From Candidatus Omnitrophota bacterium (GTDB lineage Bacteria > Omnitrophota > Gorgyraeia > Zapsychrales > Fredricksoniimonadaceae), in contig JAUSEK010000023.1 in assembly GCA_030650275.1 (NCBI GenBank), positions 34,189 through 98,188 on the forward strand: DNA of 64,000 nt, read 5' to 3'. The notes below the pieces were generated by a model that was not told where the DNA came from, did not search any database, and saw only the letters and a program-made list of their open reading frames with translations. This document shows, one piece after another, positions 21,525-53,776 of this stretch (position 1 is the stretch's first letter; each line of letters opens with the position of its first letter). A program made the position numbers and the translations under genes.

Positions 21525-22370
21525 ATGCGCGTGAACAGATACATCCTCTGGAGAATGACCAAATCGACGTTCATCCACCTTTTCCTGGGCACAGTGACGC
21601 TGGTGTGCCTGTTCCCCCTCTTTTGGATGATACGCTGCTCGCTGATGAGCAATGAGACCATCTTCGTTGACACGGGGCTGCTGCCGCATCACATCAACTT
21701 CGGTAATTTCGCCATCGCGTGGACCAAGGGCCATCTGGCCGGGTTTTTCTTCAACAGCGTCATTTATACGGCCTGCGTCGTCAGTGGCATCGTGCTCATT
21801 TCTTCGCTCGCGGCTTTTGCCTTTTCGCGGCTGGAATTCCCGGGCAAGAACGTCCTGTTCTACCTGTTCGTTGCGGCCATGATGATCCCTTTGCCGGGAA
21901 GCTTCGTGGCGTTGTTCGTGCTGATGGCCAAACTGCACCTGGTCAATACCCGTATCGGCTATATCCTGTGCATGATCAACGTCGGGCTGTCCATGAGCAT
22001 TCTTTTATTGAAAACATTTTTTGACAAGATGCCCCGTGACCTGGAAGACGCAGCCCGCATCGACGGCTGCTCCAAACTGGGGATCTGGTGGAACGTGGCC
22101 CTGCCCCTGGCCCGGCCGGCCATTGCGGTCATTGTGATCTTCAATTCACTGACCGTCTGGAATGAATATATCCTGGCAACCCTGCTGTTGGGGGACACCA
22201 GCCTCATGCCCTTGCAACGGGGGCTGATGGTTTTTCAGGGAGCCAACAGCGTTGATTACCCGGTCTTGATGGCCGGCCTCACCATGGCGGCAGTGCCTAT
22301 TGTTATGGTATACTTGGCCATGCAGAAACATATTATCAAAGGCCTGTCTTCGGGAGCTGTGGTCGGTTAG
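21525..22370 (+). CDS. ABC sugar transporter permease (MalG/UgpE-like)
   Basis: ATG 21525; EAA motif EDAARIDGCSKLGIWWNVALP. Confidence 0.75.
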   Translation: MRVNRYILWRMTKSTFIHLFLGTVTLVCLFPLFWMIRCSLMSNETIFVDTGLLPHHINFGNFAIAWTKGHLAGFFFNSVIYTACVVSGIVLISSLAAFAFSRLEFPGKNVLFYLFVAAMMIPLPGSFVALFVLMAKLHLVNTRIGYILCMINVGLSMSILLLKTFFDKMPRDLEDAARIDGCSKLGIWWNVALPLARPAIAVIVIFNSLTVWNEYILATLLLGDTSLMPLQRGLMVFQGANSVDYPVLMAGLTMAAVPIVMVYLAMQKHIIKGLSSGAVVG

Positions 22371-22374
22371 AATT

Positions 22375-24863: not shown

Positions 24864-24870
24864 CCCAAAG

Positions 24871-24900
24871 GATGTCATTCCCGCGTAGGCGGGAATCCAG
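24871..24900 (+). repeat. hairpin repeat family copy 1 (GATGTCATTCCCGC-GTAG-GCGGGAATCCAG)
   Basis: 8-bp stem ATTCCCGC/GCGGGAAT with conserved flanks; recurs at 25884 and 52266. Confidence 0.7.
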
Positions 24901-24918
24901 AACATAGAGATTAAATCA

Positions 24919-27900
24919 ATGTTTAAAAAATCCCTGAGCATTGCCCTCATTGTTGCTTTTTTCCTGACCTCCCTGGGGCCTATTCCCAAAGCTCATGCCG
25001 ACGTCCTTAATCTTCCCATCCCCGGCACCATGGTCAACTTAAGTCCTGCCTATGAGCCGGTGATGATCAAGGGCTTGACCGTCCACAAAGACAATCCCTT
25101 TTTGTTTGACTTTATCGTGGATGTGGGTGATTCAGGATTGTCCGTAGGGAACGCAGATCTGCGTTCCCTACAAGATGAATCAACCAAATTAATCAAATAT
25201 TTCCTTGCTTCTTTAGCCATTCCTGAAAAAGACCTTTGGGTCAACTTATCTCCATATGAGAAAGACCGCACCATCCCCGAAGAACTCTCCAAGACCGACA
25301 TGGGCCGTGACCTATTAGCCCAGGACTATATCCTCAAACAGATCACCGCCTCACTCATTTATCCTGAAAAGGCCTTAGGAAAAACATTCTGGGACAAGGT
25401 CTATACCAAAGCCCAACAACTCTACGGCACCACAGAAGTTCCCGTCAACACCTTCAACAAGGTCTGGATCATGGCAGACAAGGCAGAGGTGTTTGAACGC
25501 AACAACACCGCATTCGTTACCGACAGCCATCTTAAAGTAATGTTGGAAGAGGATTACCTGGCCCTTGAGCATCAAGGGCGGGTCCTGCAAAGCCACGATG
25601 GAACCCGGCCTGCTCACCAGCTCGCAGGCGCGCTAAGCGGTCCGGCTTATTCGCCGGACCAGCGCCCCGCACCACGCATGGATGCCCACACTCTGGCAAG
25701 CGACATCGTGCGTCAAATAATCCTCCCCGAACTAGAAAAAGAAGTCAACACCGGCAAGAACTTCGCTAATCTTCGTCAAATATTCAACTCCCTCATCCTT
25801 GCCTCCTGGTACAAGAAAAACCTCAAAGAAGCCCTCCTTAACCAGGTTTATTCCAATCAATCAAAGGTCAAAGGCATAGAAAGGGATGTCATTCCCGCGA
25901 AAGCGGGAATCCAATCCAAGGACGATGTGGAAGCCATCTACAACCAGTACCTTGCCGCCTACAAGAAGGGCGTGTTCAATTACATCAAAGAGGACATAGA
26001 CAAAGCCAAAGGCACGACGATACCGAGGAAGTATTTTTCGGGTGGGATGCAGATAGCTCCGCATGATGTGGCCATGACAACCGATCCGCAGAAACTGGCC
26101 AACGCCTTGCCAAAAGACAGGGCCCTGGTGTCTTTTCAAACAGGGATGATGGACCATGTTGTGGCTGTGACGCCGACACCAGACCGGGCGATGATAAACG
26201 AGATGCCGGAGAAGTTACGGGGAATATTTTTTTTCACGGACAAGGGGGCGGTCTTAAGATTGCCCCATTGGGAAAGGTTCGTCAGGGATGTTCCTGTCAA
26301 AGAAATTGATGAAATCATTGATTTTTTGGCCCCCATAATGAGGGAAAATGATTCTTACGCTTCCATAATGAGGAAAAGGCTCTCATCATCGGTGGAAGAA
26401 AGACCCAAAAGACCTTCCGGATCTCAGGAGGCTACTATTAAGAGAGTCATACTTTTATTGGCTGCGCAAGGATATTACTTCCCTGTTGGGAGCGAAAACA
26501 GTAAAGAGCCTTTTTCTGTTATGGAGATAACTTTCGACTCCGGGGCACGTAACTATTATTTGACGCTTAATGATGCGGACGGAAAACCCAGGGAAGATTT
26601 AACAGCGCAGGAGAGGTCAAGATTGATAGGGAATGTACGAACCGCGTTAAGGCTCTTTAAAAGAGATCTTGGTGAAGCAACGTCGCTTCAGGGTAAGGAA
26701 GCGTCACGCCGATCCGATGCCCCGGACCGGGCGATGACGGCGAGGCCGGCCGCATTGGTTCAGATACCGGTAGAAATACAATTATGGATCAATGTATCGG
26801 CTGGCAGCGCCAGGCCTGAAAAATGGATTCCATCGGAAACGGTTGTGGCGGAAATGACCGACATGATTGAAGGCGTTTCACCCCAAAGGTCCGAATCAGG
26901 AAGGATCCGTGCCTGGGTGGACCGTACAAAAGAAAAACTCAGTCAAGAAAAACGCGATCCATTAATAGGGTTGAGAGAAGCGATTTCCATGACTGGATCT
27001 TCGCCGGACCAGCCCATATCCAGCAAATTGAGATCCACGGTCAAAAGACGAGTTTTTCTTCATGTCTCGTCCATTCCCGGGGATGAGCGGACTTCGCCTG
27101 AAACCGTTATTGCCGTCATCAATGAGATGATCAGCAAACAGGTTCCTCTTATGGATGAAACGTCAGATTCGATTCGGCAGTGGGTGAGGTCGCAACAACA
27201 AAGATATCCCGGTGATCAAGAAGAACAACTTGTGCAATTGCGGGAAGGTATTACCCGTGCTGTCGCAGCCGCCGCCCCGGACCGGGCGATGGTGGGCAAG
27301 CCACGGACATTGGATGGAATGATGGATCTTGAAGTTGCACGCATGGTGGTACGAATCAAGCGGTCTATGGAGCTCGTAGAAAGAACAATGGAGAGCGCAG
27401 GCAGGATTGTGCGGTGGTATTCCACAAATAAAAGCGGGTTGACCCCGCAAAGCATAGGAAGCCTTCAGGAGGCGCACACAATATTAGAGTATTATTTGGC
27501 TATATGGAAAATAGATTTAGAAAAATTGGAAACTGTTTTTACGGGTTCTTCCCCGGAAGATTATCAGACCATTGCACCGGCCCTACGCGCCGATATCCGG
27601 CAGGCGAGATCATTAATAGAGAGAATAGCATCCTTACTTCCCAGAGAAAGCGCTGTAGCACCGGACCAGGCGATGATGGGACCGAACCAGCCCAGGTCGC
27701 AGAGCGAAGCCTTGAACATGGCCCTTCAAATCCTGGATCATATTACTGGCACGGATTATCAAAATGCCAAGAGGATTCTTTTTGAAAAGATCCTTGAATT
27801 AAAATTTGGGGCGTTCGGTGAGGCAGTGGTTATCAAGGACCCGCAGCACATCCTTCCTTTATTTGAACTGACCAGAATAGATCCGCCCAGGGCCGAGATC

Positions 27901-28359
27901 ATGGAGGGGCTGGCGGACCTGATCAGTGATGGCATCCTTGATCCCGAGGCTGTGCGTGACATTGTGACCATGGAGGATATCAGGCACTACCGGCGGATAA
28001 ACGCCATGCAAATAGAAACAATAGGGGCAGGGTCACCGGCGGGAGATCTTATACATGCGTTGGAGATATTTGTCGGCGTGGTCACAGATGACAGCGTGTC
28101 CGGCGCCAAAGGCCCGGACCAGGCGATGGCGGCCAAGGGTGGTATTGACCTGAACGCCGGAAACATGAAGTGGAGCGTCCGTAAGGATGGGAGCGGTGTT
28201 GAGATGAAGGTTGACCCGGCCCTGATCGAGCGCATCAAACGCGAAGGCATTGACAGTTTGACGCCGGTGATCTTTCGCGTCACGCCGGTGGTGAGTATTT
28301 GGCCTTTGGTTGGTTTAGATCCGCCCAAAAAGGAAGAAGAGCGTTTGGTCGGGGTGTAA
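24919..28359 (+). CDS. 1146-aa secreted protein with seven reiterated [AP]PD[RQ]AM motifs; no recognised catalytic domain
   Basis: Signal peptide then long ORF with strong coding periodicity; repeated DNA core CCGGACCGGGCGATG / CCGGACCAGGCGATG at 25641, 26175, 26716, 27001, 27285, 27661, 28117. Confidence 0.6.
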   Translation: MFKKSLSIALIVAFFLTSLGPIPKAHADVLNLPIPGTMVNLSPAYEPVMIKGLTVHKDNPFLFDFIVDVGDSGLSVGNADLRSLQDESTKLIKYFLASLAIPEKDLWVNLSPYEKDRTIPEELSKTDMGRDLLAQDYILKQITASLIYPEKALGKTFWDKVYTKAQQLYGTTEVPVNTFNKVWIMADKAEVFERNNTAFVTDSHLKVMLEEDYLALEHQGRVLQSHDGTRPAHQLAGALSGPAYSPDQRPAPRMDAHTLASDIVRQIILPELEKEVNTGKNFANLRQIFNSLILASWYKKNLKEALLNQVYSNQSKVKGIERDVIPAKAGIQSKDDVEAIYNQYLAAYKKGVFNYIKEDIDKAKGTTIPRKYFSGGMQIAPHDVAMTTDPQKLANALPKDRALVSFQTGMMDHVVAVTPTPDRAMINEMPEKLRGIFFFTDKGAVLRLPHWERFVRDVPVKEIDEIIDFLAPIMRENDSYASIMRKRLSSSVEERPKRPSGSQEATIKRVILLLAAQGYYFPVGSENSKEPFSVMEITFDSGARNYYLTLNDADGKPREDLTAQERSRLIGNVRTALRLFKRDLGEATSLQGKEASRRSDAPDRAMTARPAALVQIPVEIQLWINVSAGSARPEKWIPSETVVAEMTDMIEGVSPQRSESGRIRAWVDRTKEKLSQEKRDPLIGLREAISMTGSSPDQPISSKLRSTVKRRVFLHVSSIPGDERTSPETVIAVINEMISKQVPLMDETSDSIRQWVRSQQQRYPGDQEEQLVQLREGITRAVAAAAPDRAMVGKPRTLDGMMDLEVARMVVRIKRSMELVERTMESAGRIVRWYSTNKSGLTPQSIGSLQEAHTILEYYLAIWKIDLEKLETVFTGSSPEDYQTIAPALRADIRQARSLIERIASLLPRESAVAPDQAMMGPNQPRSQSEALNMALQILDHITGTDYQNAKRILFEKILELKFGAFGEAVVIKDPQHILPLFELTRIDPPRAEIMEGLADLISDGILDPEAVRDIVTMEDIRHYRRINAMQIETIGAGSPAGDLIHALEIFVGVVTDDSVSGAKGPDQAMAAKGGIDLNAGNMKWSVRKDGSGVEMKVDPALIERIKREGIDSLTPVIFRVTPVVSIWPLVGLDPPKKEEERLVGV
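25884..25913 (+). repeat. hairpin repeat family copy 2, in-frame inside the 1146-aa gene (encodes ...RDVIPAKAGIQ...)
   Basis: GGATGTCATTCCCGC-GAAA-GCGGGAATCCA, near-identical to copy 1 except loop. Confidence 0.7.
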
Positions 28360-28446
28360 CGCGTCGGGCTTGCCGAATCCGGAAAGATGTATTATACTTC
28401 TAGGGTGTAAGTTCAGTTTGAATAACAATCAAGATGGAGGTTGGAT

Positions 28447-29310
28447 ATGAAGAAGTTAGGTTTAACGGTTTTATTGTTGAGTGCTGTTTGTGCCGGCGCC
28501 TTGCCGGTTTGGTCAGCAGAGGCCTATAATTTCGGTGATTACCGTTCGGTCACCCTGATCTCCAAAGCGTGGCCGGCGCTGGAAAAAGGCGACATTGAGG
28601 CGGTGTTGGCCTACACCAACAAATGCATTGAGCTGTACGCACAGCAGGCCCGCCAGATGCAAGCCGGGCTGAAAGATTATGTCACGGGGCCCACCAAGGA
28701 CGACACTTTCAATTTGTGGGCGCTCAATGACGTGGCCGCCGCTTATTACATCCAGGGCGAGGCCTACCGCAGGGCCAACATGAAAGCCGAATCCAAAGAG
28801 GCCTTCAGCAAATTGATCAATGAATATTCTTTCGGGCAGGTCTGGGACCCCAAGGGTTGGTTCTGGAAACCCGCCGAGGCCGCCAAGGAAAAGATCGCCA
28901 TGGCCGAGGCCGGCGTGAACGTGGATTTCGGTGATTATACGTCCGCCCAGTTGACGTTAAAAGCATGGACCGCTCTGGCCGCCAATGACCTCAACGCGGT
29001 CGTGATCTATACGAACAAGGTCCTGGAACTTTATGCGCCCAAGGCCAAGGAGATGCAGGCCTCTTTGAAAGAATATGCCTGGGAAAGCAAAGAGAGCACC
29101 TTCAGTTATTGGGCGCTTAATGACGTCGGGACCGCTTTGTTCATCCAGGGCGAGGCCTACCGTAGCGCCGGCAAGAAAAAGGAAGCCGCCGAGGCCTACA
29201 AGAAGGTCATCAACGAGTATTTTTACGCCCAGTGCTGGGACCCGGCTGGCTGGTTCTGGAAACCCGCCGAAGTTGCCCAACAGAAGTTAAGTGAATTGGA
29301 TAATGTTTAG
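28447..29310 (+). CDS. secreted protein made of two tandem ~125-aa WDPxGWFWKPAE-domain repeats
   Basis: SD GGAGG 8 nt upstream of ATG 28447; signal peptide; internal duplication (NFGDYRSVTL...WDPKGWFWKPAEAA and DFGDYTSAQL...WDPAGWFWKPAEVA). Confidence 0.65.
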   Translation: MKKLGLTVLLLSAVCAGALPVWSAEAYNFGDYRSVTLISKAWPALEKGDIEAVLAYTNKCIELYAQQARQMQAGLKDYVTGPTKDDTFNLWALNDVAAAYYIQGEAYRRANMKAESKEAFSKLINEYSFGQVWDPKGWFWKPAEAAKEKIAMAEAGVNVDFGDYTSAQLTLKAWTALAANDLNAVVIYTNKVLELYAPKAKEMQASLKEYAWESKESTFSYWALNDVGTALFIQGEAYRSAGKKKEAAEAYKKVINEYFYAQCWDPAGWFWKPAEVAQQKLSELDNV

Positions 29311-36666: not shown

Positions 36667-37467
36667 ATGATACCTGAAAATACATCAAAGACCTTAGGCC
36701 CGATCGAGACCAATATCGTCGCCCGCTTAACATACGAGAAAAAGTTGATCGTCACTGTAGAGGATCTCGATCAATTATTTAAACTCGCCCCAGAGGATAG
36801 AAAACAGGTTGTTTTCAGGCTCAAAAGGAAAAAAATACTGGACCCTATAAAGCGCGGCGTCTATGCCTTTTCCCCGCTTGAAGCCGGCCCGGAAGGGACA
36901 GGGATCGATGAACTGCTCATTCCTCCGCTTTTTTTCCCAAAAAAGAATTACTACGTCGGTTACTCAACCATGTTTAATTACTACGGTTTTTCGGAACAAC
37001 TTTTTCAGACCGTATATGTTCTTAATACAACCTTACGTATGGAAAGGATCATTTGCGGTATTTCCTATAAGTTCATAAGAATTCCGGAAAGCCGCATCTA
37101 TGGCCGGGAAATCATTAAAGTGAAAAATACGGATGCCCTCGTCAGCTCTAAAGAGAGGACGCTCATCGACCTTCTTTATTTTAACAAGCCGGTCGGCGGC
37201 ATTAATAACGCCGTCCAGATCTTCAAACAAGTTGTTGAAGAAAAGAAATGTGATATCAAGAAGCTCATTCAATACGCCGCACGTTTTCCAAATATCACGA
37301 CCAGAAAACGCGTCGGCCTGATCCTTGATGATTTAGGCATTACCGAAACCACCCTTAGCCCGCTTATCAAAAGCGTGGCAAAAACCGCGCTGAGTTCGCT
37401 GACTGGATCGCGCAAAGGAACGCTCAACAAAAAATGGAGAGTCATTGTTAATGATCCACAAAAATAA
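36667..37467 (+). CDS. abiEi: AbiEi-family antitoxin / transcriptional regulator (type IV TA, abortive infection)
   Basis: AbiEi_4-like architecture; overlaps downstream AbiEii gene by 23 nt; AT-rich context. Confidence 0.6.
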   Translation: MIPENTSKTLGPIETNIVARLTYEKKLIVTVEDLDQLFKLAPEDRKQVVFRLKRKKILDPIKRGVYAFSPLEAGPEGTGIDELLIPPLFFPKKNYYVGYSTMFNYYGFSEQLFQTVYVLNTTLRMERIICGISYKFIRIPESRIYGREIIKVKNTDALVSSKERTLIDLLYFNKPVGGINNAVQIFKQVVEEKKCDIKKLIQYAARFPNITTRKRVGLILDDLGITETTLSPLIKSVAKTALSSLTGSRKGTLNKKWRVIVNDPQK

Positions 37468-38329
37468 AGAAGAATTTATAAAAACCCTTGAAAGAGCGTC
37501 CAGGAAGAAAGAGTTTTTATTGCCTCTATTGGAAAAAGATTACTATTTAACGTTGGTCCTTTCCCGGGTGCACGAGCTTTCAGAAGACCTCATTTTTAAA
37601 GGAGGGACATGCTTAAATAAGATTTATTACGCATATTATCGTTTGAGCGAAGATCTTGATTTTAGTATGAAGCTCCCACAGTACGAAGCGACGCGCGGCG
37701 AAAGACGCAAGTGTATCCAGTCGGTGAAGGACCATATAAAGAAGTTTGTGGAGCCATTAGATATAAAGATCGATGGATCGGACAATCCTGGGCGCAACGA
37801 ATCCAAGCAGTATGTATATTATTTTGTTTATCAATCAGCTCTACGCCAGGTCGAAGCAAAAATTAAATTTGAGATCGGCCTTAGGTATAATCCGATCCAC
37901 GCGACAGAGAAACGCCAAGTCCAACATAATTTTTTGCATCCCTTTACCGGAGAACCGTTATTTGATGGAGGCAAGGTCAATTGTTTGTCCTTAAAAGAGA
38001 TCGTGAGTGAAAAGCTCCGGGCCGCGGCCTTAAGGAAGACCATCGCGCCGCGCGATTTCTATGACCTCGATTTTATTTTGCGTAATCAATTCAACCTTGC
38101 GGACCAGGAAGTGATAGATCTTTTTGAGAAAAAGATTAAGGAAGATGGCGGAGATCCGGATTTAGCAAAGTATCGCACCAATCTCGGGCGATCCAATGAT
38201 GAAATCAAGGACATGCGTTCACGGATTGAAAATGAATTATTTGACGTATTAACGCCGGGCGAACGTGAGCATTTTGATCTCGACAAGGCGCTGATGAGGA
38301 TAAATGAGGCTTTAAAAGGGCTGAAATAA
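37445..38329 (+). CDS. abiEii: AbiEii/AbiGii-family nucleotidyltransferase toxin (DUF1814)
   Basis: Motif GGTCLNKIYYAYYRLSEDLDF (GGTxL...R.SxDxDF nucleotidyltransferase signature). Confidence 0.7.
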   Translation: MLMIHKNKEEFIKTLERASRKKEFLLPLLEKDYYLTLVLSRVHELSEDLIFKGGTCLNKIYYAYYRLSEDLDFSMKLPQYEATRGERRKCIQSVKDHIKKFVEPLDIKIDGSDNPGRNESKQYVYYFVYQSALRQVEAKIKFEIGLRYNPIHATEKRQVQHNFLHPFTGEPLFDGGKVNCLSLKEIVSEKLRAAALRKTIAPRDFYDLDFILRNQFNLADQEVIDLFEKKIKEDGGDPDLAKYRTNLGRSNDEIKDMRSRIENELFDVLTPGEREHFDLDKALMRINEALKGLK

Positions 38330-41128: not shown

Positions 41129-41927
41129 TTCCGACGCTCCCATTGGTGTCTTTGATTCCGGTCTCGGCGGCCTGACCGTGGTCAAGGAGATCACCCATGC
41201 CCTGCCCAATGAGCGGGTGGTGTATTTCGGGGACACCGCGCATGTGCCTTACGGCAACAAGTCCAAAGAAACCATCATCCGTTTTGCGACCCGGATCGTC
41301 ACCATCCTTTTGAAATACAAGGTCAAGATGGTGGTGGTGGCCTGCAATACCGCCTCCAGTTTGGCCCTGGAGACCCTTCAAAGGAAATTTTCCGTGCCCA
41401 TCGTCGGGGTCATCGAGCCCGGCGCCCGCAAAGCGGCCGTATCAACAAGGAACAAAAAAGTCGGTATCATTGCTACCCAGAGCACGATCAAAAGCGGACG
41501 CTATGTCCGCAAGATCCTCGAGCTTGACGGGCGCATCATGGTCACCAGCAAGGCCTGCCCGCTGTTCGTGCCTTTGGTTGAGGAGGGGTGGTTTGACCAC
41601 CCGGTGACCGTTTCGGTCGCGCAAGAATATTTAAAGGACATGAAGAGGGCCAAGGTGGACACTCTTATTTTGGGCTGTACCCATTACCCGCTGTTAAAAG
41701 GGGTGCTGGGCCGTGTCGTCGGGCCCAAGGTCAACCTGGTGGATTCCGCCACGGAAGTGGCGGGTGCCGTGAAAGACATCCTCGTTCGCAAAGGACTGCT
41801 GCGCATGGCCCTTAAGCCCGCCCGCCACACCTATCTGGTCAGCGACGAGCCGGAATTGTTCAAACGCCTGGCCGTCCGATTTTTAGGCAACAGCGTCAAG
41901 AATGTCCAAAGGTACCGCGATGTTTGA
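41112..41927 (+). CDS. murI: glutamate racemase
   Basis: VFDSGLGGLTV and LGCTHYPLL active-site cysteine regions; ATG 41112 (table start 41031 overlaps amidase). Confidence 0.85.
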   Translation: MPQPFSSDAPIGVFDSGLGGLTVVKEITHALPNERVVYFGDTAHVPYGNKSKETIIRFATRIVTILLKYKVKMVVVACNTASSLALETLQRKFSVPIVGVIEPGARKAAVSTRNKKVGIIATQSTIKSGRYVRKILELDGRIMVTSKACPLFVPLVEEGWFDHPVTVSVAQEYLKDMKRAKVDTLILGCTHYPLLKGVLGRVVGPKVNLVDSATEVAGAVKDILVRKGLLRMALKPARHTYLVSDEPELFKRLAVRFLGNSVKNVQRYRDV

Positions 41928-42282
41928 AGTGACGGTCAAAGACCATGTCGCCTCCGCCCACCGGCTGGCAGGGTATGAAGGTCCCTGCAAGGACCTGCAC
42001 GGCCACACCTGGCATGTGGAGATTGCCGTCGTCGGGGACCAATTGGATGCGGTGGGCCTGCTTGCGGATTTTAAGGTCCTGAAGAAAAAATTGAAGGATG
42101 TCCTGGATCCTCTGGACCACGCGTATTTGAACGATCTGCCCGCTTTCAAGGGCGTTAATCCCACCACCGAGAACCTGGCCCGCCACGTTTATCGTGCCTT
42201 GGCCCCGGCTGTCAGGCCGCTGAAACTCAAGCACGTGCGCGTATGGGAAAGCGAAACCGCCAGCGTGATTTATTATGAATAA
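41920..42282 (+). CDS. queD: 6-carboxy-5,6,7,8-tetrahydropterin synthase
   Basis: PTPS fold motifs (HRLAGYEGPCKDLHGHTWHVE); overlaps murI stop. Confidence 0.8.
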   Translation: MFEVTVKDHVASAHRLAGYEGPCKDLHGHTWHVEIAVVGDQLDAVGLLADFKVLKKKLKDVLDPLDHAYLNDLPAFKGVNPTTENLARHVYRALAPAVRPLKLKHVRVWESETASVIYYE

Positions 42283-42991
42283 AGCAGTTGTCTTATTGTC
42301 CGGGGGGCTTGATTCCTCGACGACGTTATATCATGCCCTTCAAAAAGGGTATGCCTGTCATTGCCTGGTCTTTGATTACGGCCAGAGGCATAAGAAGGAA
42401 ATACGTTCTGCTGTTGCCGTAGCCAAGGCCGCCGGTTGTCCCTATGAGATCGTCCGCATCGGCTTACCGTGGAAAGGCTCCGCCTTGCTGGACAAAAAAG
42501 TCAAGGTCCCCGAGGGCCGGCGTCTGGATGCCAAAGATATCCCCGTGACCTATGTTCCTGGCCGGAACATCATTTTTTTAAGTTTCGCCGCTTCTTTTGC
42601 CGAGGCCGTGGGGGCCGGGGTCATTTTCATCGGGGCCAATGCCGTGGATTACTCGGGCTATCCTGATTGCCGTCCGGAGTTTTTCAAGGCCTATGCCGGA
42701 GTGCTGGCGCGCGGGCTTAAGGCCTGTGTTGAGGGACGGACGATCAAGGTTGAGACGCCGCTCATTCATTTGAGCAAATCACAGATCGTGCGCCTGGCCC
42801 AACGGCTGAAGGTGCCCACCCATCTGACATGGTCGTGTTATCAAGGCGGACAAAAACCCTGCGGCGTATGCGATAGCTGCCGTTTACGAGCCAAGGGTTT
42901 TGCAGGGTCGGGATTGCAAGATTCATGCGTGGTGCGGGTGACTTCGGTGGGGGCCCCCCGGCGCGCGCAGGAACGAGCACGACGGGGGTGA
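42275..42991 (+). CDS. queC: 7-cyano-7-deazaguanine synthase
   Basis: PP-loop LLSGGLDSST and zinc-cysteine cluster CGVCDSCRLR; C-terminal ~30 aa read into the inverted-repeat element. Confidence 0.85.
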   Translation: MNKAVVLLSGGLDSSTTLYHALQKGYACHCLVFDYGQRHKKEIRSAVAVAKAAGCPYEIVRIGLPWKGSALLDKKVKVPEGRRLDAKDIPVTYVPGRNIIFLSFAASFAEAVGAGVIFIGANAVDYSGYPDCRPEFFKAYAGVLARGLKACVEGRTIKVETPLIHLSKSQIVRLAQRLKVPTHLTWSCYQGGQKPCGVCDSCRLRAKGFAGSGLQDSCVVRVTSVGAPRRAQERARRG

Positions 42992-43016
42992 CCGAAGACA
43001 GGACCCGCCCTTAGTG
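42938..43016 (+). repeat. left copy of ~80-bp inverted repeat flanking queE
   Basis: GTGACTTCGGTGGGGGCCCCCCGGC...GGGGGTGACCGAAGACAGGACCCGCCCTT; reverse complement matches 43721..43800 at about 90% identity. Confidence 0.75.
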
Positions 43017-43017
43017 A

Positions 43018-43716
43018 TTGGACAAAATGAACGCAAAAATCATGGAAATATTCCCGTCGGTGCAGGGAGAAGGTACATATGCCGGAGTACGGCAAGTATT
43101 TGTCCGTTTCTTCGAATGTAATATGCACTGCACGTGGTGTGATACGCCCAATTCCATCGGCGACACCGTGCGCAATTATCAGGAGATGGGGCCGGATGAA
43201 GTTGAGGCCAAGGTCCGCGCCTGCGCGTCCGGATGCCACTCGGCGAGTTTGACCGGAGGCGAACCGCTGCTGCACAAGGACTTTATCCGGGCGTTCGCGC
43301 CCCGTTTAAAAGCCATGGGCCTGAAAAATTATCTGGAAACCAATGGCACCCTTCCTGATGCTTTGGCCGAAGTGATCGATGTCATGGACATCATCGCCAT
43401 GGACATCAAACTGCCCAGTTCAACGAAAGAAAAGCCGTTCTGGCAGGAACATAAGGATTTTTTGCGCATCGCCCGGCGCAAAGAGGTGTTCATCAAGACG
43501 GTCATCACCAATGATACGGAGGCCTCCGACGTGCGGCAAGCCGCCCTGCTCGTGGCCGGCGTTGACGCGTGCATCCCGTTCATCCTTCAGCCCAATTATT
43601 TTGAAATGAAGCAGGGCGTCGTGGCCAAATGCGGGGACCTGGCAAAAGAGTGTGCAAAAATTTTGAGCGATGTTAGAATACTGCCCCAGATCCACAAATT
43701 CATGAAATTAAGATAA
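43018..43716 (+). CDS. queE: 7-carboxy-7-deazaguanine synthase (radical SAM)
   Basis: CNMHCTWCDT radical-SAM cluster motif; 232 aa. Confidence 0.85.
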   Translation: MDKMNAKIMEIFPSVQGEGTYAGVRQVFVRFFECNMHCTWCDTPNSIGDTVRNYQEMGPDEVEAKVRACASGCHSASLTGGEPLLHKDFIRAFAPRLKAMGLKNYLETNGTLPDALAEVIDVMDIIAMDIKLPSSTKEKPFWQEHKDFLRIARRKEVFIKTVITNDTEASDVRQAALLVAGVDACIPFILQPNYFEMKQGVVAKCGDLAKECAKILSDVRILPQIHKFMKLR

Positions 43717-43720
43717 TGGC

Positions 43721-43800
43721 AAGGGCGGGTCCTGTCTTCGGTCACCCCCGTCGGTGCTCGCACCAGCTGCGCGCCGCCGGGGGGCCCCCACCGAAGCCAC
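43721..43800 (+). repeat. right copy (inverted) of ~80-bp repeat flanking queE
   Basis: AAGGGCGGGTCCTGTCTTCGGTCACCCCCG...CCGGGGGGCCCCCACCGAAGCCAC. Confidence 0.75.
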
Positions 43801-43826
43801 CCGCACCACGCCATAGGAAGGAAGGA

Positions 43827-44216
43827 ATGAAAAGCTCCTACGAAGGCCTGCAAAAGAACATCCGCAAATTGAAGACCCCGGCCATCGAGGTGTGGGACAA
43901 TCAATATCCCGACCGCGATTATACGGTGGACATTGCCATCCCGGAATTCACCTGCATCTGTCCCAAGACAGGTCTGCCGGATTTCGCCACCATCAACATC
44001 AGTTACAAGCCCGCCAAGACCTGCCTGGAATTAAAATCTTTGAAGATGCATTGCGTGTCCTACCGTAGCGTGGGCATCTTCCACGAACATCTGGCCAATA
44101 AATTTTTGGATGATTGTGTCAGGGCCTGCCATCCGCGCTGGATGAAAATAGAGGTCGTGATGAACCCGCGCGGCGGCATCGCTACGACCGTGACCGCGGA
44201 GTATGCATACACGTAG
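43827..44216 (+). CDS. queF: NADPH-dependent 7-cyano-7-deazaguanine reductase (type I, single-domain)
   Basis: ATG 43827 with SD AGGAAGGA; QueF motif EFTCICPKTGLPDFA; table start 43716 is read-through of the repeat. Confidence 0.85.
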   Translation: MKSSYEGLQKNIRKLKTPAIEVWDNQYPDRDYTVDIAIPEFTCICPKTGLPDFATINISYKPAKTCLELKSLKMHCVSYRSVGIFHEHLANKFLDDCVRACHPRWMKIEVVMNPRGGIATTVTAEYAYT

Positions 44217-44820
44217 AGGTGCCGTGAAAGAATTGATCGTCGCGTCCCGCAACAAAGGCAAGGTCAATGAGATCAAGGAATTGTTGGCCGACCTGCCCGT
44301 CAAAGTCACATCTCTCCTGGATTATCCTAAGATTTCCGACGTGGTCGAGGACGGAAAGACCTACAAGGCCAATGCGTTAAAGAAAGCCGTGGCCGTCGCC
44401 AAAGCCACCGGCAAGATGGCCTTGGCCGACGATTCCGGCATAGAAGTTGCGGCGCTGGGGAATGCGCCGGGGATCTACTCCTCGCGTTTTGCGGGCAAGG
44501 GGGCCGGTGAGAAAGACAAAAACCGAAAATTATTTGAAATGCTTCAAGGCATGCCGATGTCCAAACGCCGGGCGCGTTACCGTTGCGTTGTTGCCCTGGT
44601 GGATGGCAAGGCCAAAGAGATCAGCGTTGCGCAGGGGACATGCGGCGGGTATATCACTACAGAAGAGCGCGGTACCAATGGTTTCGGTTTTGACCCGGTT
44701 TTTCTTTTAAAACGTTACGGCAGGACCTTTGGGGAATTATCACCGTCTTTAAAAGCAAAGATATCCCACCGCGCGCGGGCGCTCAAAAAGATCAAGGACG
44801 TCATTCAAAGATCGATTTGA
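44203..44820 (+). CDS. rdgB: non-canonical purine NTP pyrophosphatase (RdgB/HAM1)
   Basis: Ham1 motifs (ASRNKGKVNE, FGFDPVF). Confidence 0.8.
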   Translation: MHTRRGAVKELIVASRNKGKVNEIKELLADLPVKVTSLLDYPKISDVVEDGKTYKANALKKAVAVAKATGKMALADDSGIEVAALGNAPGIYSSRFAGKGAGEKDKNRKLFEMLQGMPMSKRRARYRCVVALVDGKAKEISVAQGTCGGYITTEERGTNGFGFDPVFLLKRYGRTFGELSPSLKAKISHRARALKKIKDVIQRSI

Positions 44821-47482
44821 GGATGGTGTTGATGACCCTGGGGACGGAGATCTTTCTGTCAAACTTCGGGTTGGTGATCTTATCGTAGATATGCACGGTT
44901 AAGGTCTGAAGCACGTCCTGGGCGATGGGCGGCACTATTCCGCTGGTCATGTCCACCACGATCGTCAGATCGCAGATCTGGTCAAAATCCACCCACCCCT
45001 GGCCCAGCAGGACGATGGTCGGGCTTTTCATGCGCAGATTGTCCGTCATGATCTTCCGGTCCTTGACCGTAAAATTGCCCTCCACGTCGGTGATCATCAA
45101 CTGGCCCAGGCGCAGGGCTTCGTTGAGAACATCCAAAAGCCCTTTGAATATTTTGAATTCCGTTAAGAAGCCCTCCCGAATGGCCAAAGACCCTTTGGCC
45201 TCCAGACCTTTGATATCAGACAGCATCCCCTTGGACAACATGGTCATGTAAAACTTGCCGTTGATCTCTTCCGCCTTGAGGTTGGGGATGTCATTTTTAA
45301 GTTTATGCAGGTCCAGCCCGTCAATGTTCAAGGCCAGATCAAAGGGGATACCCGCGCCGTTCAGGTCGCCTGAACCCACGGCATGGAGCTTTCCATCATA
45401 GACATTGGCGTCCGCCGTCAGGTTGCTGATCGTTCCTTCGCGCTGGCCGACGGTGATGTGAAGGTCATTGGCCGTGTACCCCAAAATGGAAACGGACGCG
45501 CTTTGGAGGGTGGCATCGGTGGTCCAACGTTTCCAGTCCGGTACCGGGCCTTTGATGGCCGCGTTGACATTGAGGGTGCCGGACGGTTTAAGCGCCTCAA
45601 AGGCCTTTTTTTGTTCTTCGGGCAAAAGAACGGCAACGTCTTCCAGACGAAAAGTCATTGTGGTGTTAATGTTCAGGACCGGCGGATCGGCTGGCGACAG
45701 GACGGCATTGCCGCTGGCGCCAAAGGCGATGTTCAAATATTTTCCGGTCAATTCATTGATGGTCAGGGTGTCCCCGTTTTTGCGGATATCAACTTTTAAC
45801 TGCACGTCTGCTCCGTCCAGCGTGGTTTTGATGACGGGATCCTTGAAATCATTAAGGCCTCCGGTCAACGTGTAGGCCTTGCCCAGATAAGTCCCGGTAA
45901 AATTGTTCCATGTCAGCGCGTCGGGGGCGCCATCCAGGTGTCCGGAGATGCCCGTGACGCTCTGGTTGAATGTTTTGCTGGCCACGTTCACGCCGGCAAG
46001 TTCGGCCGTGGCTTTGATCTTCGCGCTTGAGGGGTCCCCGGCAAGACCCTCGAATTGCACCTGGAACGATGCTGTTCCGCTGACTTCAAGCCCGTACTGA
46101 TCCATGATCTGAGGGAACGCATCTTTGAGTTTGGCAAGGTTGATCCTGTCCGCTCCTGCCCGGATGTTCAGGACAGGCGTCTTGAAATTCAATACTGTTC
46201 CCGTTGCTTTGATGTCGGTGTCCAATACCTGAAGGACAAGGCTTTTGATGGTCAGTTCATCGGTTTTGAACGCGGCGTCGAGGCTGATGTTCTTGAATGG
46301 CGCGAAGGGGAAACCGTTGGCCTGGCCATCAGCCACGCTCACGTGCCCGGTATAGGTCAAGGCCTGCGGGTCTTTCAGGGGATAAGAGGCCTCGACGTTC
46401 ATGGTGATGTTGCCGGTCAAGGACTGTTGTGCGTCAAGGACAACGGCGGCATTGTCCGCCTTGATGTCCGTCAGCATTTCAATGCTGCGCTCATTTTTCA
46501 TTTGGATGATCAGCGGCTTCAGGGTGAAGTTCCCGCGGACTGTTTGAGCGTCCATCCGGATATCCGTATTCTTTGTCGTCATGGTCGCGGTGATCTGAAG
46601 ACCGTTTTTGTCCTGACGGGCCTTAATGTCTTCTAAAGCGACGTCGCTTTTGATGCTTTGGTCTTTAAAGGAAACATCCAGGCCTTTGAGGGCCGCGTTG
46701 GCGCGCACGGTGAGGGTGTTCCCGCCATGGTCAATGCTCAATTGGACTTTCTCGACGGTGCCGGCCTTCCATGACAGCCCCTCAACGGGAGGCAGGAAGC
46801 GCAGGTATTCGGCGGGGCGGATGTTCTTGAGATCAACGTCCGCGTGCAGGTCCTGGTTGAGCGGCTGATAATACCCACGGGTGGTGACCAGGCCCTGTGT
46901 CCGGGGTAAAGAGGCCGACACATCAAAAGCAATGCCTTTGTAAGACAGGGATATTTTCAGGTTGAGGTTGCCTAGAATTTCCGTCCAGTTACGGCCGTTG
47001 GAAACATCATTGATGCGGACCTGTCCATTGCTGATATTGATCCCGGTCACGGTCACGGCCACAGGCGGCCCCCCAGCCGGCGGCGCAAGGAGGTCGCTGA
47101 AATTCCATTCATCCACCCCTCGACGTATGATATGCACAAAGGGATGTTCCAGGTTGATAAACGGGATGGTGACCTTGTATTGTTTGGCCCCGGGGATGAC
47201 AATGAGGCCGAAGGACAGGCGATCGGCTTGCAGGAAGACCTGATCTTGCGAGCCCTTTTGGTAAACCTTGAGTTTTTCGACGATAAATCCTTTGACCCAG
47301 TTGAAATGCAGGGCTTCGAATTCAACTTTGCGTTTGAGGAACGCCTCGGCCTGGGAGGTGACGAATTTCTTGGCCTGGACCGGGAGGATGACGCGGTTCA
47401 CGTAGACCGTCAGCGCGGTCAGGAAAAAGACGACGGCGGCAATGATGATCAGGGGCTTTTGCCACTTCATAAGCACCGGCAT
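44801..47482 (-). CDS. AsmA-family outer-membrane biogenesis protein (about 890 aa)
   Basis: N-terminal TM anchor (KPLIIIAAVVFFLTALTVYV) then long beta-rich AsmA/TamB-like body; table start 47551 runs through the tRNA-Pro gene, real start at 47482 or 47470. Confidence 0.6.
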   Translation of the reverse strand: MPVLMKWQKPLIIIAAVVFFLTALTVYVNRVILPVQAKKFVTSQAEAFLKRKVEFEALHFNWVKGFIVEKLKVYQKGSQDQVFLQADRLSFGLIVIPGAKQYKVTIPFINLEHPFVHIIRRGVDEWNFSDLLAPPAGGPPVAVTVTGINISNGQVRINDVSNGRNWTEILGNLNLKISLSYKGIAFDVSASLPRTQGLVTTRGYYQPLNQDLHADVDLKNIRPAEYLRFLPPVEGLSWKAGTVEKVQLSIDHGGNTLTVRANAALKGLDVSFKDQSIKSDVALEDIKARQDKNGLQITATMTTKNTDIRMDAQTVRGNFTLKPLIIQMKNERSIEMLTDIKADNAAVVLDAQQSLTGNITMNVEASYPLKDPQALTYTGHVSVADGQANGFPFAPFKNISLDAAFKTDELTIKSLVLQVLDTDIKATGTVLNFKTPVLNIRAGADRINLAKLKDAFPQIMDQYGLEVSGTASFQVQFEGLAGDPSSAKIKATAELAGVNVASKTFNQSVTGISGHLDGAPDALTWNNFTGTYLGKAYTLTGGLNDFKDPVIKTTLDGADVQLKVDIRKNGDTLTINELTGKYLNIAFGASGNAVLSPADPPVLNINTTMTFRLEDVAVLLPEEQKKAFEALKPSGTLNVNAAIKGPVPDWKRWTTDATLQSASVSILGYTANDLHITVGQREGTISNLTADANVYDGKLHAVGSGDLNGAGIPFDLALNIDGLDLHKLKNDIPNLKAEEINGKFYMTMLSKGMLSDIKGLEAKGSLAIREGFLTEFKIFKGLLDVLNEALRLGQLMITDVEGNFTVKDRKIMTDNLRMKSPTIVLLGQGWVDFDQICDLTIVVDMTSGIVPPIAQDVLQTLTVHIYDKITNPKFDRKISVPRVINTILKSIFE

Positions 47483-47492
47483 TCTGTTAAGA

Positions 47493-47566
47493 TCGGGGGA
47501 CAGGGATTCGAACCCTGGACCTCTTGCTCCCAAAGCAAGCGCGCTAGCCAACTGCGCTATCCCCCG
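47493..47566 (-). tRNA. tRNA-Pro (anticodon UGG)
   Basis: Manual fold of reverse complement: 7-bp acceptor CGGGGGA/UCCCCCG, D stem GCGC, anticodon stem CUUGC/GCAAG, loop UUUGGGA, T stem CAGGG/CCCUG, discriminator A; CCA not encoded. Confidence 0.85.
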
Positions 47567-51776: not shown

Positions 51777-52190
51777 ATGCATCATACAAAAGATAAAGCA
51801 GATATAGGTTTTTGTAAGGTCATTACGGATCTTACGATGAAGGGGTATGTGCCATGCATACCTTTTTCAGAACATCAAGCGTTTGATCTTGTTGTGGTTG
51901 GGCGGGACGGCACCACTTTCAGGATCCAGATTAAATACTCAACATTAAGGAAGAATGGGTCTGTGGATGTCCGGTATAGGAGAAACTGGGCGGATAAGCA
52001 CGGCGTACACACCAGAATTTATTCAAAAGACGAATTCGATTATTACGCGATTTATTGTCCAGAGAAAGATGCAGTGCTTTATGTCCGTAATACTCCGGAT
52101 TGCCCGAAGTCGATCCGTTTTGATAAGCCAGCCAACAATCAGATGCGGCATATTAAATGGGCAAATGACTATTTGAAAATCAAGAAATGA
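51777..52190 (+). CDS. PD-(D/E)xK nuclease-fold protein, 16 nt downstream of the intron-containing tRNA (candidate free-standing homing-endonuclease-like gene)
   Basis: Motif order E(SEHQ)...D(FDLVVVGRDG)...IQIK consistent with PD-(D/E)xK; AT-rich, low-GC context. Confidence 0.4.
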   Translation: MHHTKDKADIGFCKVITDLTMKGYVPCIPFSEHQAFDLVVVGRDGTTFRIQIKYSTLRKNGSVDVRYRRNWADKHGVHTRIYSKDEFDYYAIYCPEKDAVLYVRNTPDCPKSIRFDKPANNQMRHIKWANDYLKIKK

Positions 52191-52265
52191 TATCAGTTGG
52201 GCGGCGTTATTCTTGTTGAGTGTTTTTGGGTTTTTTGGTAATGTATTGCCCTTTTCAGTACTGTT

Positions 52266-52297
52266 GTCATTCCCGAATGTTTCTGTCGGGAATCCAG
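52266..52297 (+). repeat. hairpin repeat family copy 3 (GTCATTCCCGA-ATGTTTCTG-TCGGGAATCCAG)
   Basis: Same conserved flanks as 24871 and 25884 copies with a different loop. Confidence 0.6.
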
Positions 52298-52402
52298 ACA
52301 CGGCTTTATCGTACAATGGTGGGTGCCCCGCATGTCTGGAATAAACATTATGGAATGCGGGACGACCAACCACTTTTTCTGGGACAAAAAAACGTAGTAA
52401 GT

Positions 52403-52480
52403 GGTGGGTGTAGCTCAGTTGGTTAGAGCGGAAGATTGTGGATCTTCAGGTCGCGGGTTCAAATCCCGTCACTCACCCCA
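52403..52480 (+). tRNA. tRNA-His (anticodon GUG), with encoded G-1 and 3' CCA
   Basis: Manual fold: G-1, acceptor GTGGGTG/CACTCAC (one G:U), D stem GCTC/GAGC, anticodon stem GAAGA/TCTTC, loop UUGUGGA, discriminator C73. Confidence 0.85.
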
Positions 52481-52558
52481 TTTTGACCCTTAATCTGTTA
52501 TAAGGAGCATTGAATTTTGCCTTGACATATGTCAGGATGTAACATAAGATGTTAAATT

Positions 52559-53776
52559 ATGACAATCTATCAACCGCGTGAAATTACGAAAACATTAATT
52601 GAGTCGCTTGAAAACATGCCAGTGGTGGTGCTTTCCGGAATGCGCCAGACGGGTAAAAGCACCCTTCTTTTAAACCAGCCGCAATTAAAGAAAAGAAGGT
52701 ATGTCAGCTTCGATGATTTTAACACTCTCGAATTAGCCCGCAGTAATCCGGAGGAGCTCCTGTCCGGTAAAGAACCCATTACTATTGATGAAGCGCAAAA
52801 GTATCCTGAGATCTTAAATGTTATCAAGAAAGAAGTGGATAGAAATCGCAAGCCCGGGAGATTTCTCTTAAGCGGATCGGCTAATTTCTTGCTCCTTAAA
52901 AAAGTCGCCGAAAGCCTGGCTGGCAGGGCAGTCTATATGACTCTTCATCCATTTACTCGAAGGGAAATGTTAGGGGTTATTAAAGAAAAACCGGCCCTCG
53001 CGTGTTTTATTGATACCGGCGCGTTTCCTAAACGTGAAATCAATCCTGTTTCGTTAAAGGAAATCTTAAAAGGCGGTATGCCTTCCGTATGCCTTGGCCA
53101 GGTAAAAAAGCCAGAGGTGTGGTTTCGCGGCTATGAACAAACATATCTGGAGCGTGATATACGCTCCTTAGCTCAAGTGGCGGATTTGGTATCATTTCGA
53201 AATCTTTTGCATCTGGTGGCTCTTCGGAATACAAAGATCTTAAACATAAGTGAGCTTGCTCGTGACGCGAAACTAAACGTTGTCACTGCCTCGCGCTATC
53301 TTTCGCTTATGGAAGCTTCATTTATTTTAAGCCGAGTTCAGCCCCATTTTAAAAATAAAACAACCCGGCTTATTAAATCTCCTAAAGTATATTTATCCGA
53401 TACAGGGCTGTCCGCTTACCTTGAGGAGATCAAAGATTCAAATGTAAACGAGATGGCAAGAGGGGCGTTGTTGGAAAGTTACGTGGCGCAGAATTTAGAG
53501 GGAATATTTTCCGCTTATTATCCCGACGCGAAGATTACCTATTGGAATATTCAAGGCAGATACGAGGTCGATTTTATTATAGAGGTGGGTGGCAAAACGC
53601 TCGCGATTGAAGTAAAAAGCGGCAGCCGGTGGAAAGAAAGCGATCTGGCAGGCATAAAAGCGTATTTAGCCAGCAATAAAGAATGCCTTGGCGGATTATT
53701 GGCTTACAATGGCCGCGATGTTTTAAGGCTTGGCAAAAACATATGGGCTGTTCCGGTTAATTTATTGTTAAGTTAG
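52559..53776 (+). CDS. AAA+ ATPase with C-terminal DUF4143-type domain
   Basis: Walker A GMRQTGKST; architecture typical of the AAA_14 plus DUF4143 family; lower-GC gene. Confidence 0.65.
   Translation: MTIYQPREITKTLIESLENMPVVVLSGMRQTGKSTLLLNQPQLKKRRYVSFDDFNTLELARSNPEELLSGKEPITIDEAQKYPEILNVIKKEVDRNRKPGRFLLSGSANFLLLKKVAESLAGRAVYMTLHPFTRREMLGVIKEKPALACFIDTGAFPKREINPVSLKEILKGGMPSVCLGQVKKPEVWFRGYEQTYLERDIRSLAQVADLVSFRNLLHLVALRNTKILNISELARDAKLNVVTASRYLSLMEASFILSRVQPHFKNKTTRLIKSPKVYLSDTGLSAYLEEIKDSNVNEMARGALLESYVAQNLEGIFSAYYPDAKITYWNIQGRYEVDFIIEVGGKTLAIEVKSGSRWKESDLAGIKAYLASNKECLGGLLAYNGRDVLRLGKNIWAVPVNLLLS

Follow-up and report, generated by a model that had tools for sequence, protein, structure and literature searches.

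In the queuosine biosynthesis operon of an uncultured Candidatus Omnitrophota bacterium (assembly GCA_030650275.1), the queE gene stands between two GC-rich inverted repeats, here called copy A and copy B. They lie in a 64,000-nucleotide stretch of contig JAUSEK010000023.1 (positions 34,189 to 98,188), which is called the window below and whose own numbering is used throughout. This bracket is most probably incidental and would result from two separate insertions of a small non-autonomous GC-rich hairpin repeat, low-copy in Candidatus Omnitrophota. As shown by comparison with related operons, each copy appears to have inserted on its own, in opposite orientations, at one formerly overlapping junction beside queE. 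The bracket would then be a by-product of insertion at the few spots which tolerate extra DNA in a tightly packed operon, and not a device controlling queE.

The inverted repeats around queE

Pfam gave the gene order murI, queD (PTPS), queC, queE (radical SAM) and queF, followed by rdgB/Ham1, and upheld the queD-queC-queE-queF assignments made in an earlier reading of the DNA (hereafter the sequence-only reading). The features concerned are the following:

41920..42282, plus strand: queD, 6-pyruvoyl-tetrahydropterin synthase family (Pfam PF01242, E = 1e-38)
42275..42991, plus strand: queC, 238 amino acids (aa) (Pfam PF06508, E = 2e-72, residues 3-210)
42927..43012, plus strand: copy A, 86 nt, 75% GC; 105 bits with covariance model R1; predicted hairpin of -42.4 kcal/mol
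43027..43716, plus strand: queE, 7-carboxy-7-deazaguanine synthase, radical SAM, 229 aa (Pfam PF04055/PF13353)
43721..43811, minus strand: copy B, 91 nt, 78% GC; 90.9 bits with R1; in the queE-queF spacer
43827..44216, plus strand: queF, 129 aa from ATG 43827 (Pfam PF14489, list of open reading frames, comparison with relative L015)

A repeat search of the window gave two pairs of arms, 42927-42963 with 43775-43811 (37 nt, 97% complementary) and 42980-43012 with 43721-43753 (33 nt, 100% complementary), which BLAST of the first copy against the 64-kb window joined into a single match of 42927-43012 with 43811-43721 (91.2% over 91 columns, E = 2e-23). The repeats of about 80 nt and 90% identity described in the sequence-only reading are real and slightly larger than claimed, 42927-43012 and 43721-43811 being 91% reverse-complementary. 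The two copies differ by one arm substitution and three small central indels, the central sequence being AGCTGGTGCGAGCA in B and AGGAACGAGCA in A. Each of them also contains its own palindrome, as had been stated (GGGGGCCCCCC at 42949 in A, GGGGGGCCCCC at 43779 in B). No comparable inverted repeat occurs elsewhere in the 64-kb window, the runner-up being 43 nt at 74%.

With the TGA stop of queC (42989-42991) inside it, copy A extends over the new 3' end of this gene and most of the queC-queE spacer; its 3' end is followed by 14 nt and then by the queE ATG at 43027. Copy B, whose hairpin is predicted at -51.5 and -52.3 kcal/mol on the two strands, begins 4 nt past the queE stop (43714-43716); from its far end it is 15 nt to the queF ATG at 43827.

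Junctions in relatives and the effect of the probable insertions

Relatives of the operon were obtained by QueE and QueC homolog searches, both of which place the window in Candidatus Omnitrophota. Their junctions are listed below, with identities to the window genes or proteins:

L014: queC, queE and queF 92.5, 94.9 and 95.3% identical (nt); queC-queE, ATGA overlap after a queC of 216 aa; queE-queF, a spacer of about 37 nt before the conserved queF ATG (31 nt before the called start)
L015: queE 91% (nt); queC-queE not covered; queE-queF, one-base overlap (TGATG)
P0152 contig: QueE 83% (aa); queC-queE, 4-nt overlap; queE-queF, 4 nt (gene coordinates)
P0157 contig: QueE 83% (aa); queC-queE, 11 nt; queE-queF, 4 nt (gene coordinates)
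L016: QueE 83% (aa); queC-queE, 11 nt; queE-queF, 235 nt with an unrelated 197-nt nested palindrome
L017: QueC 88% (aa); queC-queE, a full element copy in the opposite orientation; queF not adjacent to queE
L019: QueC 87% (aa); queC-queE compact; queE-queF not covered
L020: QueC 81% (aa); queC-queE, 11 nt; queE-queF not covered
L018: QueC 80% (aa); queC-queE overlap; queE-queF, 85 nt with a GTCATTCCCG...CGGGAATCC palindrome
P0160 contig: QueE 76% (aa); queC-queE, 47 nt; queE-queF, 95 nt (gene coordinates only)

The queC-queE junction is empty by DNA in L014, L016, L018, L019 and L020, and by gene coordinates in the P0152 and P0157 contigs. Similarly, the queE-queF junction has no element copy by DNA in L014, L015, L016 and L018, nor by gene coordinates in the P0152 and P0157 contigs. 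A scan with the full model found no copy in L014-L016 or L018-L020, and in no other que operon examined is there a copy on both sides of queE. Alignment of the junctions defined two extra blocks in the window:

42922..43026, plus strand: extra block relative to the empty site of L014, 105 nt (junction alignment, L014 gene coordinates)
43719..43829, plus strand: extra block relative to L015, 111 nt, 37 codons, no in-frame stop (junction alignment)

Removal of 42922-43026 joins ...GCAAGA to ATGAACGC and gives an overlapping queC stop and queE start (ATGA), as in L014, while removal of 43719-43829 joins TAATG to AAAAGC and gives a one-base stop/start overlap, the counterpart of TGATG in L015. Since the window minus either block has the compact junctions of its relatives, both copies are best read as having been added to an operon that was originally compact and coupled in translation. 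In place of the ATGA and TAATG-type couplings, 35 nt now separate the queC stop from the queE start and 110 nt the queE stop from the queF start, which may have freed the translation of queE and queF from dependence on coupling. Of the two, B was probably inserted first, as it has diverged further from the family consensus, to which A is nearly identical.

Between the two copies, queE is by the same comparison native to the locus. It is 94% (aa) and 94.9% (nt) identical to the L014 gene at the same position, and its orientation is the same in every relative examined. A look-up of the exact QueE protein of the window gave no recorded match.

Both neighbouring reading frames have been altered. 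The final 22 aa of QueC (SCVVRVTSVGAPRRAQERARRG) are encoded by the inserted block and end at the TGA inside the element; none of the best 120 homologs covers this tail, and the sequence past the CxxCxxCxxR motif is 33 aa long versus a mode of 14. The extension of QueC proposed in the sequence-only reading is real, its length being 22 aa (238 versus 216 in the nearest relative) and not about 30. The same reading had ascribed a long N-terminus of the QueF reading frame to the repeat, and this was borne out: an alternative ATG at 43716, overlapping the queE stop, is in frame through 37 stop-free codons (+37 aa), while the ATG at 43827 has GGAAGGAAGGA upstream as a Shine-Dalgarno sequence. In annotation, the QueC tail and the long QueF reading frame should be flagged as repeat-derived. 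A promoter and terminator scan found no such sites within the copies, which argues that they are not intrinsic terminators.

Lengthened C-terminal tails are also seen in other Omnitrophota QueC proteins (P0274, P0275, P0279; L020 7660-7713), as for example the tail PDEAERESLSAKAGVKD, encoded over the small palindrome GCTGAACGCGAAAGCCTTTCAGC. These several lengthened proteins suggest that small insertions have been taken up at the 3' end of queC on more than one occasion.

Among the relatives, L017 (GCA_041643055.1) is of particular relevance. Its queC and queE are 88-91% identical (nt) to those of the window, and its copy, which scores 98.1 bits, lies directly past the queC stop on the other strand, so that QueC there stays at 220 aa; after queE, no element copy was found in the 107 nt to the contig end. 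In L018, the queE-queF palindrome belongs to the same family as another repeat of the window (the AAAGGATGTCATTCCCGCGTAGGCGGGAATCCA repeat, see below). With the same element in L017 and unrelated palindromes in L016 and L018, the borders of queE appear to be recurrent landing sites for several small palindromic families.

The palindrome of L016 (867-1063, about 197 nt) is nested, with terminal inverted repeats ATTGGCTAA/TTAGCCAAT and CCGTCATTGCTGCGCGACAC/GTGTCGCTTCGCAATGCCGG. In the same contig, queF and rdgB are separated by an inserted ParE-toxin gene pair. In L014, a 22-nt GC-rich stretch (GGGCGGGGTGCCCCCTCCCGTA, 1632-1653) occupies the exact position of B and is followed by a ribosome-binding region homologous to that of the window.

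A low-copy family of hairpin repeats

A covariance model, R1, was built from seven copies and run on the window without filters. It finds three window copies, A (105 bits), B (90.9 bits) and a third one, C (50.5 bits), the next match having 17.6 bits (E = 0.25). Copy C had first been seen by BLAST as two element ends about 107 nt apart at 25574-25680 on the minus strand:

25574..25677, minus strand: copy C, diverged, 104 nt; 50.5 bits, E = 7e-8 with R1; termini exact

It retains the termini of A and B (GCGTGGTGCGGG ... CAGGACCCGCCCTT) around a different and longer interior. The element has a core of about 86 nt (85-104 nt) and no autonomous open reading frame (ORF). Its conserved termini GCGTGGTGCGGG and CAGGACCCGCCCT (the ends can also be given as GCGTGGTGCGGG/CAGGACCCGCCC) close a long imperfect hairpin, in which the terminal pairing GG.GCGGGU/ACCCGCCC is invariant in 8/8 copies. 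When aligned, the outermost 32 nt at either end form imperfect inverted repeats (GCG.GGT...TCTTCGGT...CCCCC).

Sequence collections were scanned for both exact termini 55-85 nt apart, a search which favours conserved copies. In metagenome contigs, it gave six true loci, four of them distinct (L007 = L008, L009, L010 = L012, L013), whose copies are 82-98% identical to A or B. With a further copy in the metagenome-assembled genome contig L017, five distinct copies are known beyond the window, all in Candidatus Omnitrophota. Five terminus matches in species-representative genomes were rejected as chance: the genomes (Actinomycetota, Rhodospirillales and Acidobacteriota) are 64-72% GC, the interiors of the matches show no similarity to the element, and the matches are as numerous as expected for a GC-rich pattern. 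Two patterns scanned against viral contigs gave no matches, and no Rfam family matches the copies at its gathering score or at E <= 1.

All copies are predicted to fold into one hairpin of -42 to -57 kcal/mol. Over the eight copies, 93.5% of the pair cells hold standard pairs, compared to 38-55% when the partners are slid, and four pairs show changes on both sides, a level reached by only 3-4 of 500 shuffles. For a small sample and a structure derived from copy A, this is modest evidence that the hairpin itself may be maintained. The copies have a GC content of 71-78% in contigs of 48-54% GC.

Identity to copy A is 97.6% for the L013 copy and 94.1% for that of L017, as against only 91.1% for B; the variant centre AGCTGGTG.GAGCA is common to B and C. 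Since A is nearer to copies in other genomes than to B, the two do not appear to be recent duplicates of each other, nor their arms to be co-evolving. A differs from the L013 copy at 2 of 85 positions, while the host proteins are about 64% identical.

The density of the family is low: the 64-kb window has three copies, about 50 kb of que-operon relatives add a single non-ascertained one, and 46 kb of other carriers contain only the copy by which they were ascertained. Altogether, the eight distinct insertions are confined to four kinds of site. The sequence-only reading had considered MITE/REP-like insertions (miniature inverted-repeat transposable elements or repetitive extragenic palindromes), and its view is sustained by the third window copy, the five distinct copies elsewhere, the empty junctions in close relatives and the fact that A and B are not mutual nearest copies. 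It had also held that dispersed copies would make the 80-mer a generic repeat instead of a queE-specific structure; such copies were found, though the family is low-copy rather than abundant.

A recurrent insertion site in a large secreted-type protein

Copy C lies antisense in a long ORF without known domain:

24919..28359, plus strand: 1146-aa secreted-type protein, host of copy C; no Pfam domain

It is read in frame as GRVLQSHDGTRPAHQLAGALSGPAYSPDQRPAPR, and is presumably tolerated because it is in frame and stop-free. The L007/L008, L010/L012 and L013 copies are located in homologs of this ORF at the same codon position. The translated element, GRVLSSVTPxVLVPARAGGPPPxPPAPR, is flanked by the conserved blocks DYLALEH and DVNxLGSQIVR, and the in-frame segment is 29 aa long in L007, L010 and L013 and roughly 35 aa in the window.

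An exhaustive search gave 8036 representative clusters for this protein family. In the best 150 of the 8036, the linker holding the element varies from 21 to 86 aa, and the element is present in only two representatives, identical to the L007 and L010 proteins. In many homologs among these 150, other palindromic repeats are translated in the linker (VIPAKAGIQ, VIASEAKQS, VILSEAKDL, PLVGRVREGG). As judged from these alignments, palindromic repeats have a hot spot of in-frame insertion in this hypervariable linker (window 25560-25690, between DYLALxKH and SQIVRxIILPELE).

After masking of the linker, the four carrier proteins (window 24919-28359, L007 5034-8015, L010 3239-5281, L013 1676-5020) are not mutual nearest relatives. 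The window protein is 85-89% identical to the non-carriers P0119, P0001 and P0004, versus 61-70% to the other carriers, and the L007 protein is likewise 82-87% identical to non-carriers. As the nearest relatives of two carriers are devoid of the element, it would have been gained repeatedly at one site, or the linker exchanged between lineages.

A second, unrelated palindromic repeat (AAAGGATGTCATTCCCGCGTAGGCGGGAATCCA) is present twice in the window, at 24867-24899 and 25881-25913 (91% alike), and also in L018 (11390-11425). Its first window copy lies between genes, immediately upstream of ORF 24919; the second is within this ORF, in frame as DVIPAKAGIQSK, and is an insertion relative to homologs. 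In several homologs (P0001, P0032 and P0034, as VIPAKAGIQ), the linker is occupied by this second repeat family. In addition, the C-terminal two-thirds of the 1146-aa ORF contain four occurrences of a 26-nt motif (CCCGGACCGGGCGATG core; 26711-26736, 27266-27291, 27650-27675 and 28103-28128), 384-555 nt apart, which encodes PDRAM/PDQAM and suggests a repeated module.

Mobility and relationship to known elements

Target-site duplications were searched for in the 25-nt flanks of all eight copies, where the best direct repeat is no better than in shuffled flanks (P = 0.19-0.94). Imperfect 9-12-nt flank repeats seen by eye (GATTGCAAGAT/GATTGGACAAAAT at A, AAGATAATG/AAGGAATG at B) were not relied on, the shuffle test being negative. 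No direct repeat flanks the whole A-queE-B unit, no shared target motif is definable from the eight flanks, and Pfam searches of the approximately 58 window ORFs revealed no transposase, RAYT (REP-associated tyrosine transposase), integrase or recombinase. A hairpin-recognising enzyme of the HUH/RAYT type, acting in trans, would fit the lack of duplication and of a window transposase, although these do not prove it. The attC sites of integrons have a consensus core GTTRRRY. An attC identity was dropped, the termini being unlike this core and the two copies inverted, not direct.

In several respects the element resembles bacterial MITEs such as the Correia elements (NEMIS) of Neisseria. It is small (86-104 nt, within the limit of <500 bp) and non-coding, it has paired inverted ends and a predicted stable stem-loop transcript, and its dispersed copies occupy filled and empty sites between close relatives, with insertion at gene borders inside operons. 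RNase III cleavage of its hairpin would be expected, as shown for Correia elements (PMC10969869). Unlike MITEs, it has no detectable target-site duplication, no related insertion sequence or transposase among the window ORFs and no sequence similarity to any named family, is low-copy in the sequence examined and is GC-rich instead of AT-rich. AT-richness is typical of bacterial MITEs but not obligatory, and their target-site duplications are noted to decay with age (review, PMC10969869).

The architecture also recalls REPINs (REP doublets forming hairpins), with two imperfectly inverted units of about 30 nt and a spacer of about 25 nt in one hairpin of about 90 nt, a high GC content and no target-site duplication (PMC3337134). 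REPIN-RAYT systems are conserved over long evolutionary distances (PMC3337134, bioRxiv 10.1101/2022.05.22.493013). However, the two halves of the element match each other at only about 65%, and no single REP units turned up in the window. Known REPs have tens to hundreds of copies, whereas this element appears low-copy. Moreover, REPs are extragenic by definition, while five of the eight distinct copies are inside a protein-coding gene. C, L007/L008, L010/L012 and L013 are intragenic, and A supplies the last 22 codons of queC.

In-frame insertion of a palindrome, translated as an extra peptide in a tolerant region (C, L007, L010, L013), is shared with the Rickettsia palindromic elements, the classic case (PMC10969869). 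These elements are about 150 bp long and have an unrelated host phylum and sequence family, which makes them an analogy and not a class to which the Omnitrophota element belongs; the Omnitrophota linker, in addition, is a hot spot for several other repeat families. A preQ1 riboswitch or another que cis-regulatory RNA would also be a structured RNA within a queuosine biosynthesis operon. The element differs from these by its lack of an Rfam match at E <= 1, its position between genes and not in a leader, its unconserved position and orientation and its presence in an unrelated gene. On these comparisons, it is filed as a putative new family of small palindromic non-autonomous repeats. With the que operon of the window, an uncultured phylum would offer a clean, datable example of how such repeats reshape tightly coupled genes.

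The predicted RNA duplex

In addition to inserting extra DNA, the two copies could interact in the transcript. The sequence-only reading had proposed that they pair into a long-range stem of the polycistronic mRNA, and this part of its proposal is reproduced by an equilibrium fold of 42880-43860 (981 nt). Both the minimum free energy and the centroid structures pair A with B (z = -9.3), the duplex having a predicted energy of -195.2 kcal/mol versus -93.9 for two local hairpins. In the operon mRNA, each copy may fold into a stable hairpin of its own, and the two could pair in a duplex of 85 bp. Such hairpins or duplex would be a plausible RNase III substrate, by analogy with the Correia-element hairpins of Neisseria transcripts, which are cleaved by RNase III (PMC10969869).

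A selected RNA device, in which the 85-bp stem or its RNase III cleavage would set the expression of queE relative to queC and queF, has these predictions, the Neisseria precedent and the position of two of the three window copies on its side. Nevertheless, it is quite improbable. Such a fold is given by any 91% inverted repeat and carries no sign of selection. The long-range stem finds no support in the comparison of relatives: the pair is in no other que operon examined, and L017 has a single reversed copy with none after queE, so there is no evidence of the stem being selected. In addition, A is nearer to foreign copies than to B, as opposed to what co-evolving arms would give; ribosomes translate its first 65 nt as queC; A is able to fold alone about 700 nt before B is transcribed; and the same element is found antisense in an unrelated protein gene. 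As the bracket is lineage-specific, it would not matter as a regulator of queE.

Competing explanations

Two independent, incidental insertions have to be reconciled with several observations which weigh against them. Two of the three window copies are within 800 nt of each other, against one non-ascertained copy in about 95 kb of related contigs, and this clustering of A and B is not explained by random insertion alone. The same element is found at the queC-queE junction in two lineages, and four lineages, which are not mutual nearest relatives, share its codon position in the large protein. Recurrence at the same sites would imply target preference or selection and not just tolerance, for which site preference, exchange of the linker between lineages and nucleotide-level selection are three possible options. 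The unrelated palindromic families at the same sites, on the other hand, argue for permissive sites under a high general flux. Mobility is suggested by distribution, since no target-site duplication is supported, the approximately 58 window ORFs include no parent transposase and the GC content of 71-78% is unlike that of typical, AT-rich MITEs; for the source genome, the copy number refers to 64 kb only. The 22-nt stretch of L014 may be what remains of B, in which case B would predate the L014 split, or alternatively a small hairpin that pre-existed. This stretch, together with the deletion-prone nature of palindromes and the L017 copy at the queC-queE junction, would favour que-junction copies that are ancestral and have been repeatedly lost in relatives. 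Such a history is improbable, as loss would have to restore ATGA and TGATG exactly in several lineages in the absence of flanking direct repeats. The L017 copy is moreover reversed with different boundaries, the model detects no relic in L014-L016, and the near identity of A to the family consensus argues for its youth. Even less can be said for A and B being the ends of a composite mobile or invertible cassette carrying queE, as the sequence-only reading had also suggested. Inverted copies do stand directly at both ends of a single gene, and integrons flanked by identical MITEs are known in Acinetobacter (PMC10969869, Figure 3 legend). But queE has the same place and orientation, with 94.9% nt identity (95% when rounded), at a locus without copies in L014, and likewise in the other relatives examined; the whole unit is not flanked by a duplication; no recombinase, integrase or transposase is encoded in the window; and indels separate A from B, whose nearest relatives are not the same. 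This possibility is largely refuted and very improbable.

A stronger challenge is the possibility that particular sites, namely the borders of queE and the linker, repeatedly attract or keep the hairpin, which would then be either a site-specific (homing) element or a functional nucleic-acid module. Selection or recent horizontal spread would hold its nucleotide identity at 88-98% across lineages whose host proteins are 60-70% identical, with at least three linker entries and two at queC-queE, and the 85-bp double-stranded RNA might separate queE from its neighbours via RNase III. It would account for the eight distinct insertions at four kinds of site, for linker carriers scattered among non-carriers (85-89% identity to non-carriers versus 61-70% to carriers), for the 2/85 differences between A and the L013 copy in proteins only about 64% identical and for the compensatory changes that keep the hairpin; the lack of target-site duplication would be as in HUH-type single-strand transposition. 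The unrelated palindromes at the same sites in other genomes fit permissive sites and a high flux of many families, no target motif came out of the eight flanks, no enzyme was found, and the exact-termini search favours conserved copies. A site-seeking element is thus an unlikely explanation, yet one with an appreciable chance of being right. If true, the window genome would be the first case of a queuosine gene flanked by two copies that together give 85 bp of double-stranded RNA. If the recurrent landing of several palindromic families at the queE borders and in one linker reflects targeting, it would point to an undescribed insertion mechanism in Omnitrophota. Incidental insertion at permissive sites is still the reading that we favour.

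Other features of the window

At 22371-22440, an AT-rich palindrome (AATTATGGGGACACAATACTTAATTC...) has 26-nt arms, 92% complementary and 18 nt apart. It is located at the annotated 5' end of an 801-aa glycosyl-hydrolase-like ORF (22300-24705), probably upstream of the true start. A 199-nt direct repeat (28695-28893/29088-29286, 73% identical, 393 nt apart) in a TPR-containing ORF (28441-29310) looks like an internal module duplication. The listed TTG start of a 916-aa YhdP/DUF748-like ORF (44801-47551) overlaps a tRNA-Pro on the same strand (47493-47566), and the true start is probably further downstream. Finally, two small accessory-gene islands (36667-38329 and 51777-53776) interrupt an otherwise housekeeping region. 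One of them contains an AbiEi/AbiEii toxin-antitoxin pair, and the other has PD-(D/E)XK endonuclease and AAA_14/DUF4143 ATPase genes on either side of a tRNA-His (52404-52480).

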